Source: Enterobacter phage phiEap-3. Taken from it: 64,000 nucleotides of DNA. The position numbers were made by a program, and so were the translations under genes. Below, piece by piece: positions 21,197 to 57,300 of this stretch (its first letter is position 1; the number at the start of each line of letters is the position of its first letter). The stretch is from sequence record KT321315.1; one strand, 5' to 3'. The notes beneath the pieces were generated by a model. It had not been told where the DNA came from and made no database searches. It saw nothing but the letters and a program-made list of their open reading frames with translations.

Positions 21197-22765
21197 ATGT
21201 CTAAGAAAAACGAATTGATGGAAAAATGGAACGATCTTCTGGAGTCTCAGGAAGGCTTACCGGATATCGCTACCAAATCCAAAAAACAACTGATTGCTGC
21301 CATTATGGAAGCACAGGAAAAAGACGCAGAAGTTGATCCGGTTTACCGCGACGAGAAAATCGTTGAATCCTTCGGTGGTTTCCTGGCGGAAGCTGAAATT
21401 GCTGGTGACCACGGTTACGACGCAACCAAAATCGCTTCTGGTAACTCAAGCGGTGCTATTACCAACATCGGCCCTGCTGTAATCGGTATGGTTCGCCGTG
21501 CGATTCCTAACCTGATCGCGTTCGATATCTGCGGTGTTCAGCCTATGACTGGCCCTACTGGTCAGGTGTTCGCTCTCCGCGCAGTGTACGGCAAAGATCC
21601 GCTGGCTTCCGGTGCTAAAGAAGCATTCCATCCGATGTTCTCTCCGGATAGCATGTACTCCGGTCAGGGCGCGGCTCCGAGCAACGGCTTTACCGAACTG
21701 GCTTCCGGTACTGCGATCGCTGACGGCGCTATCGTGTTCCACGATTTCGTTGAAACTGGTCGTGTGTTCCTCCAGAACGTTTCTGGCGCTCCGGTTACTG
21801 TAACTGGTTCTACCGACGATGCTCTGGATGCTGCTGTTATCGCCGAACAGGAAAAAGGTACTCTGGCTGAAATTTCTTACGGTATGGCTACCAGTGTAGC
21901 AGAACTGCAAGAACAGTTCAACGGTTCTACTGGCAACCCGTGGAACGAAATGGGCTTCCGTATCGATAAGCAGGTTATCGAAGCACGTAGCCGCCAACTG
22001 AAAGCACAGTACTCTGTAGAACTGGCTCAGGATCTCCGCGCTGTTCACGGTATGGACGCTGACGCCGAACTGTCTGCTATTCTGGCAACCGAAATCATGC
22101 TGGAAATCAACCGCGAAATCGTTGACATGATCAACTATACCGCACAGGTTGGTAAAACTGGTTTCACTCAGACCGTTGGCTCTAAAGCTGGTGCGTTTGA
22201 CTTCCAGGATCCGATTGATGTTCGTGGCGCTCGTTGGGCTGGTGAAAGCTACAAAGCTCTGCTGATTCAGATCGACAAAGAAGCAAACGAAATCGCACGT
22301 CAAACTGGTCGTGGTGCTGGTAACTTCATCATCGCTTCCCGTAACGTGGTTTCCGCTCTGGCTCGTATCGATAGCGGTATCACTCCGGCAGGTCAAGGTC
22401 TCCAGAAGACTCTGAACGTTGACACCACTAAAGCAGTATTCGCTGGTGTTCTGGGTGGCGTGTATAAAGTATACATCGACCAGTATGCACGTGGTGATTA
22501 CTTCACCGTGGGTTACAAAGGCGATAACGAAATGGATGCTGGTATCTACTACGCTCCGTATGTTGCGCTGACCCCGCTGCGTGGTTCTGATCCGAAGAAC
22601 TTCCAGCCAGTAATGGGCTTCAAAACTCGTTACGGTGTAGGTATCAACCCGTTTGCGAACTCTCGCTCTCAGGCTCCGTCCGACCGTATCACTTCTGGTA
22701 TGATTACCAAAGAAATGTTCGGTAAAAACGCATACTTCCGTAAAGTATACGTTAAAGGGCTGTAA
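21197..22765 (+). CDS. 23: Major capsid protein gp23
   Basis: 522 aa versus 521 aa in T4. Strong codon bias typical of highly expressed genes. Followed by a strong terminator. Confidence 0.95.
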   Translation: MSKKNELMEKWNDLLESQEGLPDIATKSKKQLIAAIMEAQEKDAEVDPVYRDEKIVESFGGFLAEAEIAGDHGYDATKIASGNSSGAITNIGPAVIGMVRRAIPNLIAFDICGVQPMTGPTGQVFALRAVYGKDPLASGAKEAFHPMFSPDSMYSGQGAAPSNGFTELASGTAIADGAIVFHDFVETGRVFLQNVSGAPVTVTGSTDDALDAAVIAEQEKGTLAEISYGMATSVAELQEQFNGSTGNPWNEMGFRIDKQVIEARSRQLKAQYSVELAQDLRAVHGMDADAELSAILATEIMLEINREIVDMINYTAQVGKTGFTQTVGSKAGAFDFQDPIDVRGARWAGESYKALLIQIDKEANEIARQTGRGAGNFIIASRNVVSALARIDSGITPAGQGLQKTLNVDTTKAVFAGVLGGVYKVYIDQYARGDYFTVGYKGDNEMDAGIYYAPYVALTPLRGSDPKNFQPVMGFKTRYGVGINPFANSRSQAPSDRITSGMITKEMFGKNAYFRKVYVKGL

Positions 22766-22819: not shown

Positions 22820-22852
22820 AAGAAAAGTTTGTCAATAACGCAGGAACATAAA

Positions 22853-24142
22853 ATGAGTGAAAAATTTTACACAATTAACAAGCTGGTGCGTCAGTCACAG
22901 CTACCGCCTGGCCTGTCTAAAAAGGTTCTTGATGAGGCAACCGGAACAGAAACAATTAACGTAGCTAATACCCGTCCGGATCTGGTATCTCTTACCCGTG
23001 CGGTAAACAACCTGATCTACGGTGAACTTGTAGCGATTCAGGAAACTAATTTGCCTACCGCAACCCTGTTCGGTGTGCGTTATCGTAACCCTAAAGGCGA
23101 TATGACGTTTTCCAGCGCTGCTACCTATTCCGGTAAGTATGCAAGCCGTGATAACATTCAAGTTGGTGCGGTTGGTACTGCCTACACCAAAGGCCAAGTT
23201 TTCAAACACCCGACAAGCGATGTCGTATACGAAGCAACTGATAGCGTAACTCTCGCAGGTGCTGATATTGATGAAGCGATTATGGTCGCAGTATTCAGCA
23301 ATAAATTACGCCTGGCAAGCGAAGCCGCGCCAACAAGTCAGTATGAAACCAGCGAAGATATTAGCACAACTTCTTTCGAAATGGATCGTTGGAATATCAA
23401 CGTTCGTTCCCGTAAATTCAAAACTGAAATGACCGTGGAACTTATGCAGGATCTGGAAGCAAACCAATTCAACGCAGAAAATGTGATTGAAGATGTTCTG
23501 GGTACTGTTGCCAGCGAAGAAGTAAACAAAGATATCATCCAGACTCTGATCAACGTATCAAATCGTTACAACGTTGATGGTGTGGTCACAAATGGCATTT
23601 TCGATGCTACAACCGCATACACTGCAAAGGATGCTCCGGCTTTAGGTCGTTTCCTGTATCAATTAGTGTGTGAAATGGGGCAGGAAATGAATAGAACGAC
23701 TTCATTTGAAGCTACCTATGTCCTGGCCTCTTCTCGCGTTGTAGGCGTTCTGGCTGCGTCTGGTTGGATGCATGAAACTGATGAAACCCACCCGTTAGCA
23801 ACAGGTCGACTTAAAAACGGTTATTATGTCTATACTGACACCAATACACCGTTTGATTACCTGCTGACTGGTTGCAAGTACGATCTGGGTGAAATGGATC
23901 ATGTTGGCTCTCTGTTCTATACGCCATACACAGAAGCTGATCAGGCAGGTTCGATCAAGATTTCTGTTGATCCTCAATCCTTACAACCTAAAGTTGCTAT
24001 TCTGATGCGCTACGGTTTATCGGTTAACCCGTATACCACTGCTGCTAATGAAAGACTTGTGAAAGGTGATGACTGGGTAAACCTCTCAGGCAAATCTAAA
24101 ATGAGTCAGATTGTTGGTATCAAACTTCCTAAACTGGGTTGA
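22853..24142 (+). CDS. 24: Capsid vertex protein gp24
   Basis: gp23 paralogue, sharing the 'VELMQDLEANQFNA' and 'PYTEA' regions with T4 gp24. The internal ATG carries an AGGAACATAAAATG ribosome-binding site; the track start at 22829 is TTG. Confidence 0.9.
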   Translation: MSEKFYTINKLVRQSQLPPGLSKKVLDEATGTETINVANTRPDLVSLTRAVNNLIYGELVAIQETNLPTATLFGVRYRNPKGDMTFSSAATYSGKYASRDNIQVGAVGTAYTKGQVFKHPTSDVVYEATDSVTLAGADIDEAIMVAVFSNKLRLASEAAPTSQYETSEDISTTSFEMDRWNINVRSRKFKTEMTVELMQDLEANQFNAENVIEDVLGTVASEEVNKDIIQTLINVSNRYNVDGVVTNGIFDATTAYTAKDAPALGRFLYQLVCEMGQEMNRTTSFEATYVLASSRVVGVLAASGWMHETDETHPLATGRLKNGYYVYTDTNTPFDYLLTGCKYDLGEMDHVGSLFYTPYTEADQAGSIKISVDPQSLQPKVAILMRYGLSVNPYTTAANERLVKGDDWVNLSGKSKMSQIVGIKLPKLG

Positions 24143-24176
24143 TAGTATAACCCAACGGGGATAATATTCAATAGGT

Positions 24177-24205
24177 GGAGTAGGGAAACTTACTCCATCT
24201 TTTAA
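24177..24205 (+). terminator. Terminator after gp24
   Basis: GGAGTA-GGGAAACT-TACTCC followed by ATCTTTT. Confidence 0.55.
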
Positions 24206-24320
24206 TAATTATTATAATTAATATTAAATTAGATCTTGAATTTATAAATGATTTATGATAAAATTTATTAATTATAATTATTATAGATCAAATAATTTTT
24301 GAAATCAAGTAAAAATAAAT

Positions 24321-24349
24321 TTGATTTTATTAATTAGATCATGTATAAT
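24321..24349 (+). promoter_or_regulatory. Sigma70-like early promoter upstream of uvsY (TTGATT-17-TATAAT)
   Basis: -35 TTGATT and -10 TATAAT with a 17-nt spacer that contains a GATC. Confidence 0.5.
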
Positions 24350-24388
24350 TATTCTTTTAATAATATATTATATTAGATCAAATAAAAT

Positions 24389-24416
24389 TTGACTACAAAT
24401 TAATATAGTATATTAT
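24389..24416 (+). promoter_or_regulatory. Sigma70-like promoter upstream of uvsY (TTGACT-16-TATTAT)
   Basis: Consensus-like hexamers ~30 nt before the uvsY ATG. Confidence 0.45.
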
Positions 24417-24446
24417 AGATCAACTGGGTAAATTGGTGAGTATGTT

Positions 24447-24866
24447 ATGAGTTTGAAATTAGAAGATCTGCAAAATGAACTTGAGAAGGATATGCTGATA
24501 GATCCCCTCAAGTTGCAATCAGAATCAGCGGATATCCCGAAGATTTGGGCTAAATGGCTTCGATACCATTCAAACGCTAAGAAAAAATTGATCCAACTTC
24601 ATGCGAAAAAAGAAGCTGATGTGAAGGATCGTATGCTGTACTACACCGGAAGGCATGACAAAGAAATGTGCGAAGTGGTGTATACTGGGACTACTGAAAT
24701 CAAAATCGCGATCGCTGGGGATCCGAAGATTGTAGAAACCAACAAGCTGATCCAGTATTATGACATGGTGGTAGATTTCACCAGCAAAGCACTGGATATC
24801 GTCAAAAACAAAGGATACTCTATCAAAAACATGTTAGAGATCCGTAAATTAGAAAGTGGTGCATAA
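24447..24866 (+). CDS. uvsY: Recombination mediator UvsY
   Basis: 139 aa versus 137 aa in T4. 'LEDLQNELEKD', 'LYYTGR' and 'QYYDMVVDF' match T4 UvsY. Confidence 0.85.
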   Translation: MSLKLEDLQNELEKDMLIDPLKLQSESADIPKIWAKWLRYHSNAKKKLIQLHAKKEADVKDRMLYYTGRHDKEMCEVVYTGTTEIKIAIAGDPKIVETNKLIQYYDMVVDFTSKALDIVKNKGYSIKNMLEIRKLESGA

Positions 24867-25042
24867 TGTCTACTGAAAATGAAAAATGTGTAGTGTGCAA
24901 GTGTCCGGTTCCTTCTACTGGTTTTGTGACTGAATCCGGGCGCGTGTGTAGTACTATCTGTGCTGACTACATCGCAGAAAAAACAAAAAACGGCGAGATC
25001 AACGAATCCGATGATCTGAATGAAGTTCAAATGTTGCTGTAG
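24866..25042 (+). CDS. Small Cys-rich (CxxC...C...C) protein, uvsY.-1-like
   Basis: 58 codons. Translationally coupled to uvsY by a TAATG overlap. Zn-ribbon-like cysteine spacing. Below the 60-aa track cutoff. Confidence 0.5.
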   Translation: MSTENEKCVVCKCPVPSTGFVTESGRVCSTICADYIAEKTKNGEINESDDLNEVQMLL

Positions 25043-25051
25043 GAGAATCTT

Positions 25052-25132
25052 ATGATTGGATACGGTGAAGGAATTACAGATCGTGATGAACGTCCAGATC
25101 TCTTAGAATCTGACGAACATCCTGATTTTTAG
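25052..25132 (+). CDS. 26-codon micro-ORF (uvsY.-2 position)
   Basis: GGAG ribosome-binding site 6 nt upstream of the ATG. Ends right before the late promoter at 25135. Confidence 0.25.
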   Translation: MIGYGEGITDRDERPDLLESDEHPDF

Positions 25133-25134
25133 GA

Positions 25135-25142
25135 TATAAATA
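25135..25142 (+). promoter_or_regulatory. T4-type late promoter TATAAATA heading a non-coding unit
   Basis: Exact octamer. No ORF with a ribosome-binding site before terminator 25473-25504. Confidence 0.6.
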
Positions 25143-25472
25143 CTATCGTAGGGCAAGGGCATGTTTACCGATGAATGCATTTTCATAATCGGATAAACCT
25201 ATGGCCTATATGGAATGCAACATATATTCGTGATTGGGATTTTTTTCTCAACCTGGAACCTTTAGGCTAACAGTGTGCAACGGCACGAACTACGATTATA
25301 CCACAGTACCCGAAAGGGGCTTGATAAAAGAATGCTGGATGATAGGCGTACTCTTTTGCGCCGTCCGATGGAGTTTACCTTCGGCGGGGTGATTGATAAC
25401 ATACCTTCGATCAAGGGCATGTGAATAGAATAGCCAGAATAGTACAGCACTGGCGTTAAGCAAATGTACAAA

Positions 25473-25504
25473 AGCCCCTTCCTTTCGGTTGGGGCTTCTT
25501 TTTT
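25473..25504. terminator. Bidirectional terminator between the non-coding unit and uvsW.1
   Basis: AGCCCC-(12 nt)-GGGGCT flanked by AAAA and TCTTTTTT. Confidence 0.65.
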
Positions 25505-25736
25505 AGAACTTTTCTTCTTCTCCGCTTTCGAGTTCGGCCTTTAATTCTTCGGCTCGACCTTTCAGCGCATCGCGCATAGAAATATCGTCTGACGGTGCAA
25601 CATCAACTTCTTTTACACGATTTTTGTAATATTTTTCAAGCTCTTTAAGGCCGTCCATAGTACGGCAAGAGGCGACCTTGCTCATGAAATCATCAATAGC
25701 CGCCTCATAAAGTCGAAAATCGTTGAAACTCTTCAT
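25503..25736 (-). CDS. uvsW.1: UvsW.1 (small UvsW-associated protein)
   Basis: 77 aa versus 76 aa in T4. Lies immediately 3' of uvsW on the same strand. Confidence 0.7.
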   Translation of the reverse strand: MKSFNDFRLYEAAIDDFMSKVASCRTMDGLKELEKYYKNRVKEVDVAPSDDISMRDALKGRAEELKAELESGEEEKF

Positions 25737-25744
25737 TTTAACCT

Positions 25745-27244
25745 CTAAATTTCGATTTGTTTGATCACGTAGTCAAACTTTTCTTCATTGTAAATGCGTA
25801 CTCGTTCGATCGCGTGTTTCATACCATAGTTTTTGTATGAATATTTATTTTTAGCATTTTTGGACTTTGCCAGCGTTGCTAAGTTATCAACCAAATCCCA
25901 AACAGTAGCAAGAGATTTAGAATCATGTTTACGCAGTACGCGCCCAATTGACTGTTTGACTATAACAGCAGATTTGCAAGGATGTCCGAAGATTATGTGA
26001 TGCAGGTTCTTAACAGAAATACCTGTACTCAGTACACCAATAGAACCGATTACGATCAGCCCCTTCGTTGATTCCGCGATCCGTTTCATTTCGTTTCGCT
26101 CATCAATTCCCGTTTCCCCAGAAATGTATACAACGTTGTCATATACCTTTTTGAGTTGCTCATACAGCCATTTACCATGTTTGATCTGATTGAACATCAC
26201 AAACACGTTTTCATCTTTTTCCCTTGCCAGTTTCAACGCCAGCTTACAGATCCATGCGTTACGCCTGGTATGCGATGTTATATACTTGATTTCGCTTTGG
26301 TAATCAGCCCCCTTCATTTTCTTAATCTCATCCTCTTTATATCTCATGAAGATGGTATTAATTCGAAGGTTGGTAACTTGACCTTCCTGCATCAACCGAT
26401 TTGTATCAACTGGCTTGAAGATTTGACCAAAAGCGCCAATGTATTGCATCATGTTTGCTTTGCCTTCTTTCAGAGAACCAGAAAGGCCAAACTTGAAAAT
26501 ACACTGATCCATTGTGTTGATGATCTTCTGTATGCTTTGTCCGGTTGATTTGTGGCATTCATCCACCATCAAACACATGAACTGCTGAAACCACTCAGGA
26601 GGCATTTTAACAGCCGATTGCCACGTAGACACGTAGATCAATGCATTACTGTTTTTAGCAGTTCCTGACCGTATTCCAAGCATTGCCTCGCGAGGTAAAA
26701 GGCGATAGTTGACGATATCACCGATCATCTGATCAACAAGGGCAGTTGTTGGGACAATGATTAGTACTTTGCCTGTGTAATTTTCCAGACACCAACGAGA
26801 TATCAATCCCTGAATAAGAGATTTACCCGCTGACGTTGGGAGGTTAAGCACAGCACGGCGGTTTTTAATCGCATGAAACACCGATTGTTTTTGATACCAA
26901 TACGGATCAATTTGCTTGTTTCCGTCGTATACTGGGTGTTCTTCTAACCACTTGTCAAAATCTGGCTGGGTAATTTCTTCTGTTTCGTGGATCTTAGGAT
27001 CCATCCAGATAGAATACCCGCGAGACTCCGCGAATTTTGTTACAAGATAGGCTAAACCGTAGGGCAGTTTCCCGTTATAGTCCATCAAGTATATGTAGCC
27101 GTTCCATCCACCATATTTGTATTTTGCCTGGTACTGATAACCTGGCGGCTGGAAGCTGAAATAGTCGCGCAATTCATAGACTATGTTAGCCTCTGCCTGA
27201 ATCTGCACATGACTAGTGTTAAGGAATTTGACTTCGATATCCAC
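25745..27244 (-). CDS. uvsW: UvsW SF2 DNA/RNA helicase
   Basis: 499 aa versus 503 aa in T4. 'NLPTSAGKS' Walker A, 'DECH' box, 'VLIIVPTTAL' and 'TVWDLVD' are collinear with T4 UvsW. Confidence 0.9.
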   Translation of the reverse strand: MDIEVKFLNTSHVQIQAEANIVYELRDYFSFQPPGYQYQAKYKYGGWNGYIYLMDYNGKLPYGLAYLVTKFAESRGYSIWMDPKIHETEEITQPDFDKWLEEHPVYDGNKQIDPYWYQKQSVFHAIKNRRAVLNLPTSAGKSLIQGLISRWCLENYTGKVLIIVPTTALVDQMIGDIVNYRLLPREAMLGIRSGTAKNSNALIYVSTWQSAVKMPPEWFQQFMCLMVDECHKSTGQSIQKIINTMDQCIFKFGLSGSLKEGKANMMQYIGAFGQIFKPVDTNRLMQEGQVTNLRINTIFMRYKEDEIKKMKGADYQSEIKYITSHTRRNAWICKLALKLAREKDENVFVMFNQIKHGKWLYEQLKKVYDNVVYISGETGIDERNEMKRIAESTKGLIVIGSIGVLSTGISVKNLHHIIFGHPCKSAVIVKQSIGRVLRKHDSKSLATVWDLVDNLATLAKSKNAKNKYSYKNYGMKHAIERVRIYNEEKFDYVIKQIEI

Positions 27245-39288: not shown

Positions 39289-39577
39289 TATCCGCAAAAA
39301 CGACAAAGGAACCGTGATTTTCTATGACAACATGCCCCTTGTAGCTCGCAAGGGGCTTTTTGCTAAAATCGCTGGGTATTCCTTTAAACTGGAAGAAGTC
39401 AACGACGAAACACTAAAAGAGATCGTAAGAATTGCCTTACAGTTAAGAGGTAAGAAAGACGAACAAAGAGCTATTGACATGATCAATAAATTGGGCGAAA
39501 CTCAATGCTTCATAGTGAATCGTGGTTACAAGTACGATACCATTGCAAAATTTGAAAAAGGGCTTTGTGAATTATGA
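39275..39577 (+). CDS. Hypothetical protein
   Basis: 100 aa. Overlaps the nadV 3' end and is ATGA-coupled to dam. Confidence 0.4.
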   Translation: MPGFSIRKNDKGTVIFYDNMPLVARKGLFAKIAGYSFKLEEVNDETLKEIVRIALQLRGKKDEQRAIDMINKLGETQCFIVNRGYKYDTIAKFEKGLCEL

Positions 39578-40425
39578 GTTATTATGGTGTGATCCCATAC
39601 ACAGGAAACAAGCAAAAGCTACTTCCTGAATTGTTCAAATTATTTCCGGACAGAAACAGCTATATGCGATTCATTGACTGTTTTTGTGGTGGTTTGAGTG
39701 TGTCACTAAACGTCCCTAAACCCGTTCTAAGCAACGATTACGATCGGACGTTGATTGATATGTATAAGCGCCTTCAAATGCTTCCTGACCTCTCTCCGGT
39801 GCGAGAATTGATTAAACAACATGGGCTGGGTAAGAACGAGAAAGAAGCGTATCTCACATTTCGTGATGCATATAATAAGAACAAGGATCCGCTATGGCTC
39901 TATATTCTGATCCTGCATTCGTTTAGTAATGTTAATCGAACCAACGATAAAGGCGATTTTAACGCCAATTTTGGTTGTAGAACGTTGAATGATTCTACCG
40001 TTAAACGGTTTGAACACTTCAAAAACAATGTTCGGGGAATTGAATTCTCTAGCGCATCGTTTAAGGATCTTGATATCTGTTTGAATGATTTTGTGTACTG
40101 CGATCCGCCGTACCTGATCACTGATGCAGTTTATAACAAATTCTGGAACGAAGAACGCGAGCATGAATTATATGATTTTCTCGATAATTTAAACTCTGAT
40201 GGTATCAAGTTTGGTTTATCAAACGTGACACATCATGCAGGAAAGCAAAATGATATCCTGATCGAGTGGATGCAAAAATATAATGTGCATAACCTCGATA
40301 AAAAGTATCTGTTAGGCCAGCATACTGATTCTTACGAACAAAATAAAACGCAAGAAGTCTACGTGTGCAACTACCAGAAACGCGACGTAAATACATACCC
40401 TGAAACACTGGATGACTTAATGTAA
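39574..40425 (+). CDS. dam: DNA adenine methyltransferase (Dam, GATC)
   Basis: 'YTGNKQKLLPEL', 'FCGGLSVSLN', 'DPPY' and 'YNKFW' are collinear with T4 Dam. Confidence 0.9.
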   Translation: MSYYGVIPYTGNKQKLLPELFKLFPDRNSYMRFIDCFCGGLSVSLNVPKPVLSNDYDRTLIDMYKRLQMLPDLSPVRELIKQHGLGKNEKEAYLTFRDAYNKNKDPLWLYILILHSFSNVNRTNDKGDFNANFGCRTLNDSTVKRFEHFKNNVRGIEFSSASFKDLDICLNDFVYCDPPYLITDAVYNKFWNEEREHELYDFLDNLNSDGIKFGLSNVTHHAGKQNDILIEWMQKYNVHNLDKKYLLGQHTDSYEQNKTQEVYVCNYQKRDVNTYPETLDDLM

Positions 40426-54369: not shown

Positions 54370-57300
54370 ATGGCTGATTTAGCAAAAATTCAATTCCTAC
54401 GTAGCACAGTTGCGGGGAAAACACCTACTACAAGTCAGCTTGCAGATGGTGAACTGGCGATCAACATGGCTGATTATGCCATTTACACGAAAAATGGTTC
54501 TTCGATCGTTCAGTTAGCGGGTAAAGGTATCCCAGAAACAAATACCAAAAAATTAACAGTAAATGGGCCTAGTGCTCTTAATGATACCGTTACCGTAGCG
54601 GAAGGTAAAACTATTACTTTCACCAACGCGGATTTGAGCGGGGGTATGGTTCGTCATATCACTGGTAAAAACGCGCTTAACGATGGTTGGTACATCGGTT
54701 CTGGTGGTGAGAGCAATAAAGGGTTTTTAGAAATCGGTACAATTGATGACGGTGATGAAGAGATCCGTTTCGTTTCCCGTGGTTCTGGTGATACTGTTCG
54801 CCGTACTCTGAAACTTATTGATTCCGGTGGTAACACTCGCGTACCAGGTAACATCTATATTGATGAAGCTATGGGCGGTGCTGGTTCTGCTTTTATTTCA
54901 AAAAGTAAAGCATATTTCGGTGCTGGCGGTGCTGATATCTATATGCGTAACACTGCTGGCGGTGCAACAAATCAGTTAACGATCACTGATGGCGGCGAAT
55001 TGCTGTTTCAAGCAAAACCTGTATACTGGGACGGTCGTAAACCGACTTTAACCGAATTGGGGATCGGTCGGGTTGAAAACGCGCGTCAGCTTGAGCAAGA
55101 TAATTTCCCTGTAACTACTGGCAACGAAACCCGTTGGATCAAAGTTGCTCTGTTAAAAGATCCGGCTTCCGGTCAGAGTCGCTTGCAACTGATGGTGACT
55201 AACGGCGGTAACTATGGTTCTACGCGTAGTTCTATCGACTTTATTGATTGTACTGCTCGAAGCATTCCAGCGACATTAACAAGCGGTAACGTTCGTTCTT
55301 ACTTGCAAGTTCGTCGTTTAGGGGATACTGCAATTGATAATGTTAACCAGATGCGTTATAGCCTTGTTCGTACCTCAGAAGGGTTAGAACTGTGGTTTAC
55401 TCAACGCGCATTCATTGGTGGTGTTAAAGTTGCGCTGTTGTCTATCGCTGGCGGTGCTGCTACTGAATATTATCTGCCTACTGGTTACACGATTTCTGCA
55501 ACTGCTCCGGAAGGTTTGGTTGAGAGTGTGGTTATTCGTATCTATGATGAAATGAATAAGCCTAACCTTGACGATGGTACTGATGGTATTCTGTCTGTTG
55601 CTAAAGGTGGTACAGGTGCAAGTACAGCGGCTGCTGCTCGTACAAACTTAGGTTTGGGTACTGCTGCAACCCGTGATGTTGGTACAGGTTCCGGACAAGT
55701 AATGCTTGTTGGTGCTTACGGTTTGGGCGGTAAGGGTACATCATATACCGTTTCTAACGCTCGCGACTATCTGAAACAACTGCGTACTGATGGTTCTCAG
55801 TTCATGCGAAATACGCTTGGTACTGAAATTAACTATGGTATGGGCGCAAGTTTTTATAGCTCTGTATCAGATGTTCATGCGGTGATCTCGGTTGATTGGA
55901 ATACTGGACGCGTTAAAGTTGGTGCAACTAATGATGCTAACTTAAACTCAGATACCGGAAAAATCAGCTCTCAGGAACTGTACGGTACTGCATTTAAACC
56001 AACTCCGGATGACGTAGGGGCTGTTGCTCGTACTGGTGATGGTATGACAGGTGATCTGTCTATTACCAAAGTGTCTCCCGGATTCCATTTAAATGCTGAG
56101 AGCGGAAACTCCGTAATTTGGTTTAAGTATAAAGGGGTTGAAAGTGGTGCTGTGTGGGCGTTGCCTAATACTGCCTCTTCTGGTGAAGTTCGCATTCGTG
56201 CCAGAACGTCGGGCGGAACGACTGGGGGCGAATTCTCATTTAAATCAGACGGTACATTTACATCACCGGGTAATATTAACATCACATATGGTGCATTTAA
56301 CGGTCGAACTGTTAATACATCCTATGCGAACTTTAATAACACAAGTTCAACAACAACCGAACAAACCGTTTCTATTAGTGGTTCGCAGCACACTCCGCTG
56401 TTACTGAATAGACCGACTAACTCAAACTTGTCTATCGGGTTTAAACTTTCCGGAATGAACATGAAACGTTTGGGTATCGATGTAAACGGCGATATTCGTT
56501 ACGGTGAAGCCGAAAACCAGACACAAAACGCATGGCTGTTGACTTCGGATACCATAAACAGATGGAGTGTTAACTTCGGGCGTGATATTAACGTTGCAGG
56601 TGTAGTTAATTCAACTGGTGGATTTGCTGGCCCTGTTACTGCATATGATTTGACCGGGGTAACTCAGGATCTTGATGCTTTAACATTGAACAATGCCGAA
56701 CCAGGACATATTAAAGTTTATTCGTGCCGTAGTATGGGTGGCGGTGATAACATCACCAATAAACCTTCCGGCGTAGGTGGTAACTTTATTGTTATCGTTG
56801 AATGTCTCCGTAAAGTAGGCGATACTGATTACACTAACCGTCAAGTATTACGCGCATCGGACAATAAACGCAGTTGGGAACGTTGGTTTACTGTTAGCGG
56901 TACTGCTAAAGCCTGGACACCGTGGAGAATGAACGTTGTTAGCGGAAACGATGACGATGTATCATTTAAATCTGTTACCACGACTACAGGAAACCTGAAC
57001 AGTGGAAACGATCTGATTGTTGCTAACAACGCTCGCGTAGGCGGCAACTTAGGGTTAGGTGGTGCTTCTTCCACGACGTACACTGATAAAGGTGTTGTGA
57101 TTGGTAACGGTAGTGCTCTGTTAGAAACTACTGATGGTCGCGTGATTATTGGTAGTTCTGGTGCTGGTCGTGCCGTTGAATTGCGTCCTGGTGGCCCAAC
57201 TCAAACCAACAACGGGATCAAAGTGACTGCTACCTCTGGAAGTGGTGGTGATACTGCGATCGAGTATGCACAAGGGGCGAAAATTCGTTCTAATAACGGC

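Follow-up and report, generated by a model that had tools for sequence, protein, structure and literature searches.

Here we analyzed the intergenic gap between gene 24 and the recombination mediator gene uvsY in a 64,000-nt stretch of Enterobacter phage phiEap-3 (KT321315.1), hereafter the window, whose coordinates are used unless another genome is named. The gap (24143-24446; 304 nt, 82% A+T, non-coding) contains five copies of GATC, the recognition sequence of the phage-encoded Dam. These sites are not randomly placed. All five are accounted for by the anatomy of predicted promoters, and the most A+T-rich part of the gap, which we refer to as island C, belongs to a family of three such islands (A, B, and C). 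The explanation that we favor is that the gap is a group of sigma70-type promoter modules that arose by duplication and lie where the genome melts most easily, with the GATC sequences marking Dam-site positions within the modules. Based on the sequence comparisons below, we give this explanation as a whole, with the Dam link included, a probability of about 0.5. It is highly probable that island C contains functional uvsY promoters; a further role of islands A-C as replication origins is possible but doubtful. The window belongs to Slopekvirus (the Klebsiella phage KP15/KP27/Miro group) and is 99% identical to KP15, KP27, Miro, PMBT1, and about 110 more records.

Predicted promoter modules and GATC sites in island C

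Island C (24199-24446, no strand assigned) is 87-89% A+T and non-coding, with no open reading frame (ORF) of at least 30 amino acids on the plus strand. A first-pass annotation had described the span 24205-24446 as an 85-90% A+T spacer of about 240 nt, and we measured 242 nt and 86.8%. GATC occurs at positions 24232, 24286, 24337, 24376, and 24418, at intervals of 54, 51, 39, and 42 bp. The five sites stand as first described, but the consensus given for them, T(T/A)AGATC, agrees with just three. Across the window, TWAGATC occurs about as often as chance predicts (20 matches against 16.4 expected). It was replaced by TAGATC, which is common to all five sites, always in plus-strand orientation; four extend to WTAGATCA. 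Four of the five TAGATCA copies in the 64-kb window lie inside the gap. The five sites fall within 190 bp of DNA that is 88% A+T. From local composition, 0.18-0.39 GATC would be expected, and none of 5000 first-order Markov simulations reached five.

Promoters were predicted as consensus-scan matches to the sigma70 -35 and -10 hexamers, scored out of 12. The most distal plus-strand match, P1 (24236-24264; TTGAAT-N17-TAAAAT with a TG two bases before the -10; 9/12), is immediately preceded by TAGATC #1 (24230-24235), whose GATC directly adjoins the -35 (aGATCTTGAAT). This GATCTTGAAT arrangement, with GATC against the -35, recurs in island B, and phage Lw1 has GATCTTGAAA. By its sequence, P1 is related to the promoter at KP27 100632 in island B, as a paralog that has degenerated. 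On the opposite strand, a promoter directed at gene 24 is predicted at 24280-24308 (read 24308->24280; TTGATT-N17-TATAAT, 10/12). TAGATC #2 (24284-24289) supplies, on that strand, the GATC-TA of GATCTATAAT, which covers -16 to -13 and the start of the -10. Back-to-back with this promoter is P2 (24321-24349, plus strand; TTGATT-N17-TATAAT, 10/12), with 12 bp separating both -35 hexamers and TAGATC #3 (24335-24340) within the P2 spacer. A second minus-strand promoter-like site (24367-24395, read 24395->24367; TAGTCA-N17-TATAAT, 10/12) has TAGATC #4 (24374-24379) in its spacer and carries a promoter annotation in KP27. The predicted proximal uvsY promoter P3 (24389-24416, plus strand; TTGACT-N16-TATTAT, 10/12) is likewise an annotated promoter there. 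The GATC of TAGATC #5 (24416-24421) lies 1 nt past the -10 of P3, close to or at the start site, and on the minus strand TAGATC #5 forms a second GATCTATAAT. The P3 leader would be about 24 nt long, with a Shine-Dalgarno sequence, GGTGAG, at 24434-24439.

Each of the five GATC sequences sits in or against a promoter hexamer or spacer: against the P1 -35, in the P2 spacer, twice within minus-strand GATCTATAAT, one of these copies also lying just after the P3 -10, and in the spacer of the second minus-strand site. This anatomy fits the Dam-modulated promoter cluster that the first-pass annotation had offered as one option. Its two sigma70-like promoters with interleaved GATC correspond to P2 (GATC in the spacer) and P3 (GATC after the -10), although it overlooked the two equally strong minus-strand promoters at 24308->24280 and 24395->24367. 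Matches of at least 10/12 number four in island C compared with 0.93 in composition-matched shuffles (P=0.02), six versus 0.64 in island A, and three versus 0.42 in island B.

The sites had also been described as iteron-like repeats, and here our reading differs. The shared core is just 6-8 nt, no tandem repeat in the gap reaches 17 nt, and initiator-type tandem iterons are absent. Direct repeats of 41 nt (76% identity), 40 nt (70%), and 13 nt (exact; TATTATAGATCAA at 24279 and 24411) are present, and judging from their sequences the longer ones are diverged duplicates of promoter modules rather than iterons. Two inverted repeats were also identified. IR-1 (24205-24284), with 19-nt arms that are 95% complementary (24205-24223 and 24266-24284), encloses TAGATC #1 and P1, and IR-2 (24360-24416), with 16-nt arms that are 94% complementary (24360-24375 and 24401-24416), encloses TAGATC #4 and the P3 -35. 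As single-stranded DNA, island C folds better than its shuffles (z=-2.6). Rfam gave no match for island C or for the window.

The gap is 95-100% conserved within Slopekvirus. Among nine genomes, GATC #2 is lost (GACC) in RCIP0020 and GATC #3 is lost in both RCIP0020 and Matisse. Individual GATC sites are dispensable in natural isolates.

Three GATC islands in the Slopekvirus genome

Joining KP27 positions 1-111500 to the window gave a pseudo-genome that represents the 174-kb phage genome and contains just three large A+T-rich islands. Island A (KP27 31.17-31.44 kb) lies between rnh and gene 55 and has nine GATC, island B (KP27 100.48-100.76 kb) lies between gene 3 and KP27_206 and has eight, and island C, at about 135.1 kb in KP27 coordinates, has the five described above. 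Jointly, the islands contain 22 GATC, whereas each of the 23 other orders of the four bases occurs in them 0-5 times. In nearest-neighbor calculations, no other part of the genome has a duplex as unstable as these three islands, whichever window size is used (z 4.6-7.6, against about 3.5 for the next region), with island C the most unstable (z=5.3-7.6). For comparison, 1.48 Mb of unrelated viral loci were scanned in 250-bp windows, none of which combined 75% A+T or more with five or more GATC. GATC is strongly over-represented across the whole window as well (415 versus 235±15 expected), and in the pseudo-genome it is the commonest of the 24 permutations (1146), with CTAG the rarest (78).

The islands have a promoter family in common, cTTGAnn-N13-GATC-TATAAT-aATTATTAATTAA..ATTTTATCA, with four members: 31237 on the plus strand of island A, 100516 and 100632 on the plus strand of island B, and 24308->24280 on the minus strand of island C. 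The last is the best-conserved family member in island C, with 74% identity over 116 nt to the island B module. Across the family, TGATCTATAA is invariant and the spacers are variable. Five of the six copies of GATCTATAAT in the 174 kb fall within the islands, which share 65-75% similarity across 100-200 nt. GATC intervals are regular in island C only; those of islands A and B are irregular, ranging from 5 to 47 bp, and helical phasing of GATC was rejected as a feature of the family on that basis. An IMG/VR scan for TTTAGATCTGATCT, which covered other phage groups that might have such islands, returned chance matches only, besides KP15 itself.

Several features of the islands are recorded here as separate observations. 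In island A, four GATC fall within 27 bp (TAGATCTGATCTATAGATCATTAGATCTA; L007:31340-31369), outside the predicted promoters, and near this run is a perfect 18-bp palindrome, CTACAATGATCATTGTAG. The sequence GATCTGATC occurs twice in island A and also in island B. The best-conserved modules of island B (KP27 100516-100560, plus strand) and island C (24308-24260, minus strand) are inverted copies of each other, 34.5 kb apart, and bracket the entire baseplate-to-head structural gene block. Public assemblies often start, end, or split within these two islands (window 24277-24446; KP27 100623-100637), including those of PSKm2DI, P-KP2, phiKp_1, _9, _15, _18, _19, and _23, KLB10, and the IMG/VR entries L015 and L018. 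Several are split into 35 kb and 141 kb, the former being exactly the B-to-C segment. The breaks are likely due to the shared inverted promoter modules, to low coverage of 88% A+T DNA, or to both.

Relatives, known systems, and neighboring genes

The three island loci are occupied by a different element in the sister genus Pseudotevenvirus, sampled here through RB16, RB43, Lw1, Margaery, and CfP1, in which the genes flanking the loci are about 77% identical to those of Slopekvirus. This element of about 150 bp is found between gene 24 and uvsY, between rnh and gene 55, and between gp3 and the KP27_206 homolog (for example, RB16 24/uvsY, L002:775-975; RB16 rnh/55, L011:880-1090; Lw1 gp3/gp190, L012:545-725). 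It contains 12-nt iterons, GARCGAAGYGAG, in two direct and two inverted copies around an A+T-rich hairpin with an invariant A+T core, TATATTTTATATATAGAG, and a conserved TTTTTAACCA lies a few tens of bases downstream. The core occurs exactly three times per complete Pseudotevenvirus genome, always on the same strand, and BLAST found two to three copies in each of 63 records, annotated in none of them. In every copy, the core is enclosed by an inverted repeat of 7-11 bp without mismatches, and three clades have three different stems (AACTACAT/ATGTAGTT, ATGTACTG/CAGTACAT, and AAATGTCC/GGACATTT). These stem differences are compensatory, and the three paralogous copies within a genome change in concert. 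Outward sigma70 promoters flank the element and contain GATC, either between the hexamers or next to the -35. Rfam gave no match for the element, and our literature search found nothing on it or on the Slopekvirus islands.

A more distant clade (IMG/VR 3300019879_000001; UvsY 71-74% identical) also has the same element upstream of uvsY, and the iteron/hairpin element is therefore probably the ancestral state. In this clade, a small Cys-rich, zinc-ribbon-like ORF (MKIIKIESDWSCKHCGG...) lies between the element and uvsY (L020:2290-2500; L021:2290-2500). The GATC-bearing promoters of Pseudotevenvirus and the distant clade (TTGACTtcttGATC..TATAAT, GATCTTGAAA, and TTGATT..attGATCtcTATAAT) are set in DNA that is otherwise unrelated. 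The Slopekvirus pseudo-genome has zero matches to either the iteron or the core. A CTACA/TGTAG stem shared in island A had looked suggestive of descent from the Pseudotevenvirus element, but we rejected such descent, as Smith-Waterman alignments at the three syntenic pairs gave z of -0.8 to 1.4, which is shuffle level. The two systems are alike in their three loci, in numbering three per genome, in their GATC-bearing promoters, and in an A+T-rich center with inverted repeats. They differ in that the iterons and the core in its covarying stem are absent from Slopekvirus, and there is no sequence similarity between them (z<1.5). The Slopekvirus islands are a syntenic replacement of the iteron/hairpin element.

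One of the closest described systems is T4 oriF. The T4 record agrees with the earlier statement that oriF maps to the uvsY promoter, and it shows a 76-bp gap between gene 25 and uvsY with aaTGCTTca-N12-TATAAT and no GATC repeats. Two parts define oriF, namely a promoter that depends on MotA and an unwinding element rich in A+T (PMC3016281). In the Slopekvirus gap, the DNA downstream of P1, P2, and the minus-strand promoter is 87-89% A+T, as an unwinding element would be. However, the Mot box ((a/t)(a/t)TGCTT(t/c)A at -30) is absent, there being no GCTT or AAGC anywhere in 24143-24446, and RB43-like phages are without MotA and middle promoters (PMC1524935). On these grounds, membership in the oriF family, as the first-pass annotation had proposed with its oriF-type origin, appears to fail. 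Homology with T4 oriF was also rejected, since the T4 region is unrelated in sequence. The two regions are similar in their placement directly upstream of uvsY, in combining a promoter with easily unwound A+T-rich DNA, and in having the uvsW gene nearby. They differ in that T4 has a 76-bp gap, a Mot box, and gene 25 as neighbor, whereas here there are 304 bp, five GATC, promoters on both strands, and gene 24. The UvsW helicase removes R-loops in T4.

The resemblance to oriC and P1 oriR that had been suggested holds for GATC in A+T-rich DNA and does not extend to DnaA boxes or initiator iterons. Like the oriC/dnaA promoter region and P1 oriR, the islands combine a GATC excess where the replicon is richest in A+T with promoters that have GATC at the -35 or -10, and Dam is available. 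Unlike them, island C has no DnaA boxes (of six matches to TTWTNCACA in the window, none lies between 22873 and 33777, so none is in the gap) and no initiator iterons, and the phage is virulent and replicates also by recombination. No Rep-type initiator gene is annotated in the KP27 regions inspected (all except 111.5-135.6 kb). SeqA, which sequesters the Dam-methylated GATC clusters of those origins, prefers GATC spacing of roughly 31 bp or less, and the 39-54 bp spacing in island C is wider than this. Dam-sensitive promoters such as IS10 pIN, dnaA P2, and the agn43- and pap-type switches likewise have GATC in or against core promoter elements, an arrangement through which methylation could alter binding by RNA polymerase or a regulator. 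In island C, however, no OxyR- or Lrp-like regulator is implicated, and a single island holds many tandem and divergent promoters. The T7 primary origin has tandem promoters leading into non-coding A+T-rich DNA in the same way, but these are T7 RNA polymerase promoters, without a GATC motif and at one primary site.

The PeSL cassettes of T4-like phages (PMC2839356, PMC4122927) are similar to the island modules in being repeated, paralogous sigma70-type cassettes dispersed in the genome. They differ in having a GC stem-loop, a short leader, and SD-ATG (Shine-Dalgarno sequence and start codon), and they are neither A+T-rich nor GATC-containing; in the island modules the stem-loop is missing and A+T-rich non-coding DNA extends far downstream. 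As the ordinary early promoters of this phage are of the PeSL type (GC stem-loop, TTGCAT..TATATT, no GATC; PMC4122927), the island promoters form a separate class. The promoters annotated as "putative middle" in KP27 are PeSL-type cassettes (for example, 24998-25026, 55495-55523, and 93265-93293), in which the -35 TTGCAT is part of a GC stem-loop that also acts as terminator for the upstream unit; TATATT and the conserved leader acacacatcgaaacgaaa come next.

Upstream of island C are gene 23 (21197-22765) and gene 24 (22829-24142), the latter on the same strand as uvsY. The left border of the island is the intrinsic terminator of gene 24 (24176-24203, plus strand), a tGGAGTA-loop-TACTCCa hairpin followed by a T-run. 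KP27, Miro, and Matisse each have a terminator annotated at the corresponding place. As this terminator closes gene 24, uvsY requires its own promoter. The uvsY gene (24447-24866, plus strand; PF11056, E=2e-37) is the predicted target of P1-P3 and is followed by a uvsY.-2 homolog and then, on the opposite strand, by the uvsW helicase gene (25745-27244, minus strand). The phage Dam was confirmed at the position given by the first-pass annotation (39574-40425, plus strand; PF02086, E=2e-34). It is a GATC N6-adenine methyltransferase and a full-length ortholog of T4 Dam, matching the structures 1YFJ and 1Q0S with about 56% identity to 1YFJ (E=2e-84), and Dam is also present in Pseudotevenvirus at 79-87% amino acid identity. 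For the small neighboring genes KP27_206, a-gt.5-like, and uvsY.-2, considered as candidate binding proteins, Pfam and PHROG gave no informative assignment.

Directly 3' of uvsY.-2, we also noted a 26-codon ORF (25053-25132) with a good Shine-Dalgarno sequence (taGGAGaatcttATG) that is unannotated in KP27. A late promoter, TATAAATA, follows at 25135 and leads into about 340 nt of non-coding DNA of ordinary G+C content (25135-25505), closed by a strong terminator at 25473-25505, between uvsY.-2 and uvsW.1. This stretch has an RNA fold z of -2.5 and no Rfam family, and it is a candidate late non-coding RNA.

Competing explanations and implications

In the explanation we favor, unmodified host RNA polymerase would use the island promoters early in infection. 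P2 and P3, with P1 further upstream, would start early uvsY transcription behind the gene 24 terminator, and the two back-to-back promoters would fire in the opposite direction. GATC methylation would then tune promoter use. N6-methyladenine would occupy the major groove between -16 and -13 and at the border of the -35, places that are contacted by sigma regions 3 and 4 and the C-terminal domain of the alpha subunit. On entry, both strands of each site would carry the methyl mark; the first round of replication would leave the sites hemimethylated, and host SeqA could possibly bind at the denser GATC clusters of islands A and B. A promoter next to long non-coding A+T-rich DNA is the architecture of T4 and T7 origins, and so an origin role may accompany the promoter role.

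Several findings weigh against this explanation. Promoter-like matches are frequent in A+T-rich DNA, and the P value for island C (0.02) is by itself modest. The minus-strand promoters have no coding target and are directed antisense into gene 24, and several tight GATC clusters in islands A and B, such as TAGATCTGATCTATAGATCATTAGATCTA, fall outside promoter hexamers. GATC is no better conserved than its surroundings, with three changes in 20 GATC columns compared with about one expected from roughly 14 variable columns in 250, although nine genomes at 95-100% identity are too uniform for a powerful test. Pseudotevenvirus shares Dam yet is without dense GATC islands. Promoters alone explain neither why there are exactly three islands nor why these coincide with the three copies of the Pseudotevenvirus element, and our search of the literature on Slopekvirus transcription, start sites, methylation, or origins found none.

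An R-loop-type origin is compatible with the promoter reading, and we regard it as a tentative possibility. Here, an island transcript would stay hybridized in the very A+T-rich DNA downstream and prime the leading strand, as at T4 oriF and oriG and in T7; the three islands would be three origins, and Dam methylation would lower duplex stability, permit a SeqA-type once-only control, or both. Consistent with this, the only three large A+T-rich islands of the genome are its three least stable duplex regions, each pairs promoters with long non-coding A+T-rich downstream DNA, and the minus-strand promoters have no coding target. The Pseudotevenvirus element, with its iterons, hairpin, and concerted evolution, is origin-like and occupies the same three loci. 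In T4, a promoter and an unwinding element suffice for origin function and the unwinding element is exchangeable, and oriE, oriF, and oriG lie at transcription strand-switch points (PMC3016281). Islands A and B are similarly at strand-switch points and at cumulative GC-skew minima. However, gene orientation fully explains these minima, and we rejected GC skew as origin evidence because they coincide with the orientation switches and are not independent of them; island C is at no skew shift. The absence of MotA and a Mot box also means that the T4 oriF mechanism is not literally transferable, no homology is detectable with either T4 oriF or the Pseudotevenvirus element, and rU:dA-rich hybrids are weak, so that persistence of an R-loop in 88% A+T DNA would not be assured.

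An origin of the oriC or P1 oriR kind, in which an initiator or DnaA/SeqA binds the spaced TAGATC(A) and melts the DNA under Dam control, is very unlikely. Five TAGATC in the same orientation at 39-54 bp in A+T-rich DNA, in a phage that has Dam, would suit it, and the minus strand reads GATCTA followed by AT-rich sequence, which recalls the oriC 13-mers, GATCTnTTnTTTT. But the conserved unit is just 6-8 nt long, sister-island spacing is irregular, and DnaA boxes, long tandem repeats, and an annotated Rep-type initiator are all missing from the regions given above; the promoter modules account for every unit, and two units are dispensable in natural isolates. Somewhat less improbable, though still quite unlikely, is that the GATC sequences are a by-product of duplication. 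One GATC-containing promoter cassette would have been copied in tandem and inverted, the GATC would have no methylation role, and the islands would be strong promoters with UP-element-like flanks. The units are indeed embedded in diverged duplicates (the 41-nt, 40-nt, and 13-nt repeats), the islands resemble one another over 100-200 nt, and GATC has been lost in some isolates without obvious consequence. Duplication by itself is difficult to reconcile with the retention of 22 GATC, against 0-5 of any other permutation, in island paralogs that have diverged to about 70%, with an invariant TGATCTATAA beside variable spacers, with GATC clusters outside the duplicated modules, and with the lack of any comparable window in 1.48 Mb of unrelated viral DNA. 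Dam-site promoter modules in easily melted DNA remain the explanation we prefer.

To our knowledge, T4 is essentially the only T4-like phage in which replication origins and immediate-early control regions have been mapped, and the T4 origins are not conserved in its relatives. In this phage genome, islands A-C are the strongest candidate sites for the start of early transcription, and possibly of DNA replication. Slopekvirus is widely used in Klebsiella phage therapy, and its islands, together with the three Pseudotevenvirus elements, provide a short list of candidate loci. There is a practical side as well, in that public assemblies of these phages break at the islands. If methylation gates the islands, this would give a role to the phage-encoded Dam, whose function in T-even-like phages has long been unclear. 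A broader and more speculative reading, which we consider unlikely, is that RB43-like relatives of T4 keep three cis elements at fixed loci as candidate origins and that the sequence system at these loci has been swapped wholesale between genera. It would be an iteron-flanked covarying hairpin in Pseudotevenvirus and the deeper clade and Dam-site-saturated, ultra-A+T-rich promoter islands in Slopekvirus, where the firing of origins and early promoters would be gated by GATC methylation. If true, a virulent phage would carry a methylation clock, full on entry and hemimethylated after one round, with a handover to uvsY-dependent, recombination-driven replication.

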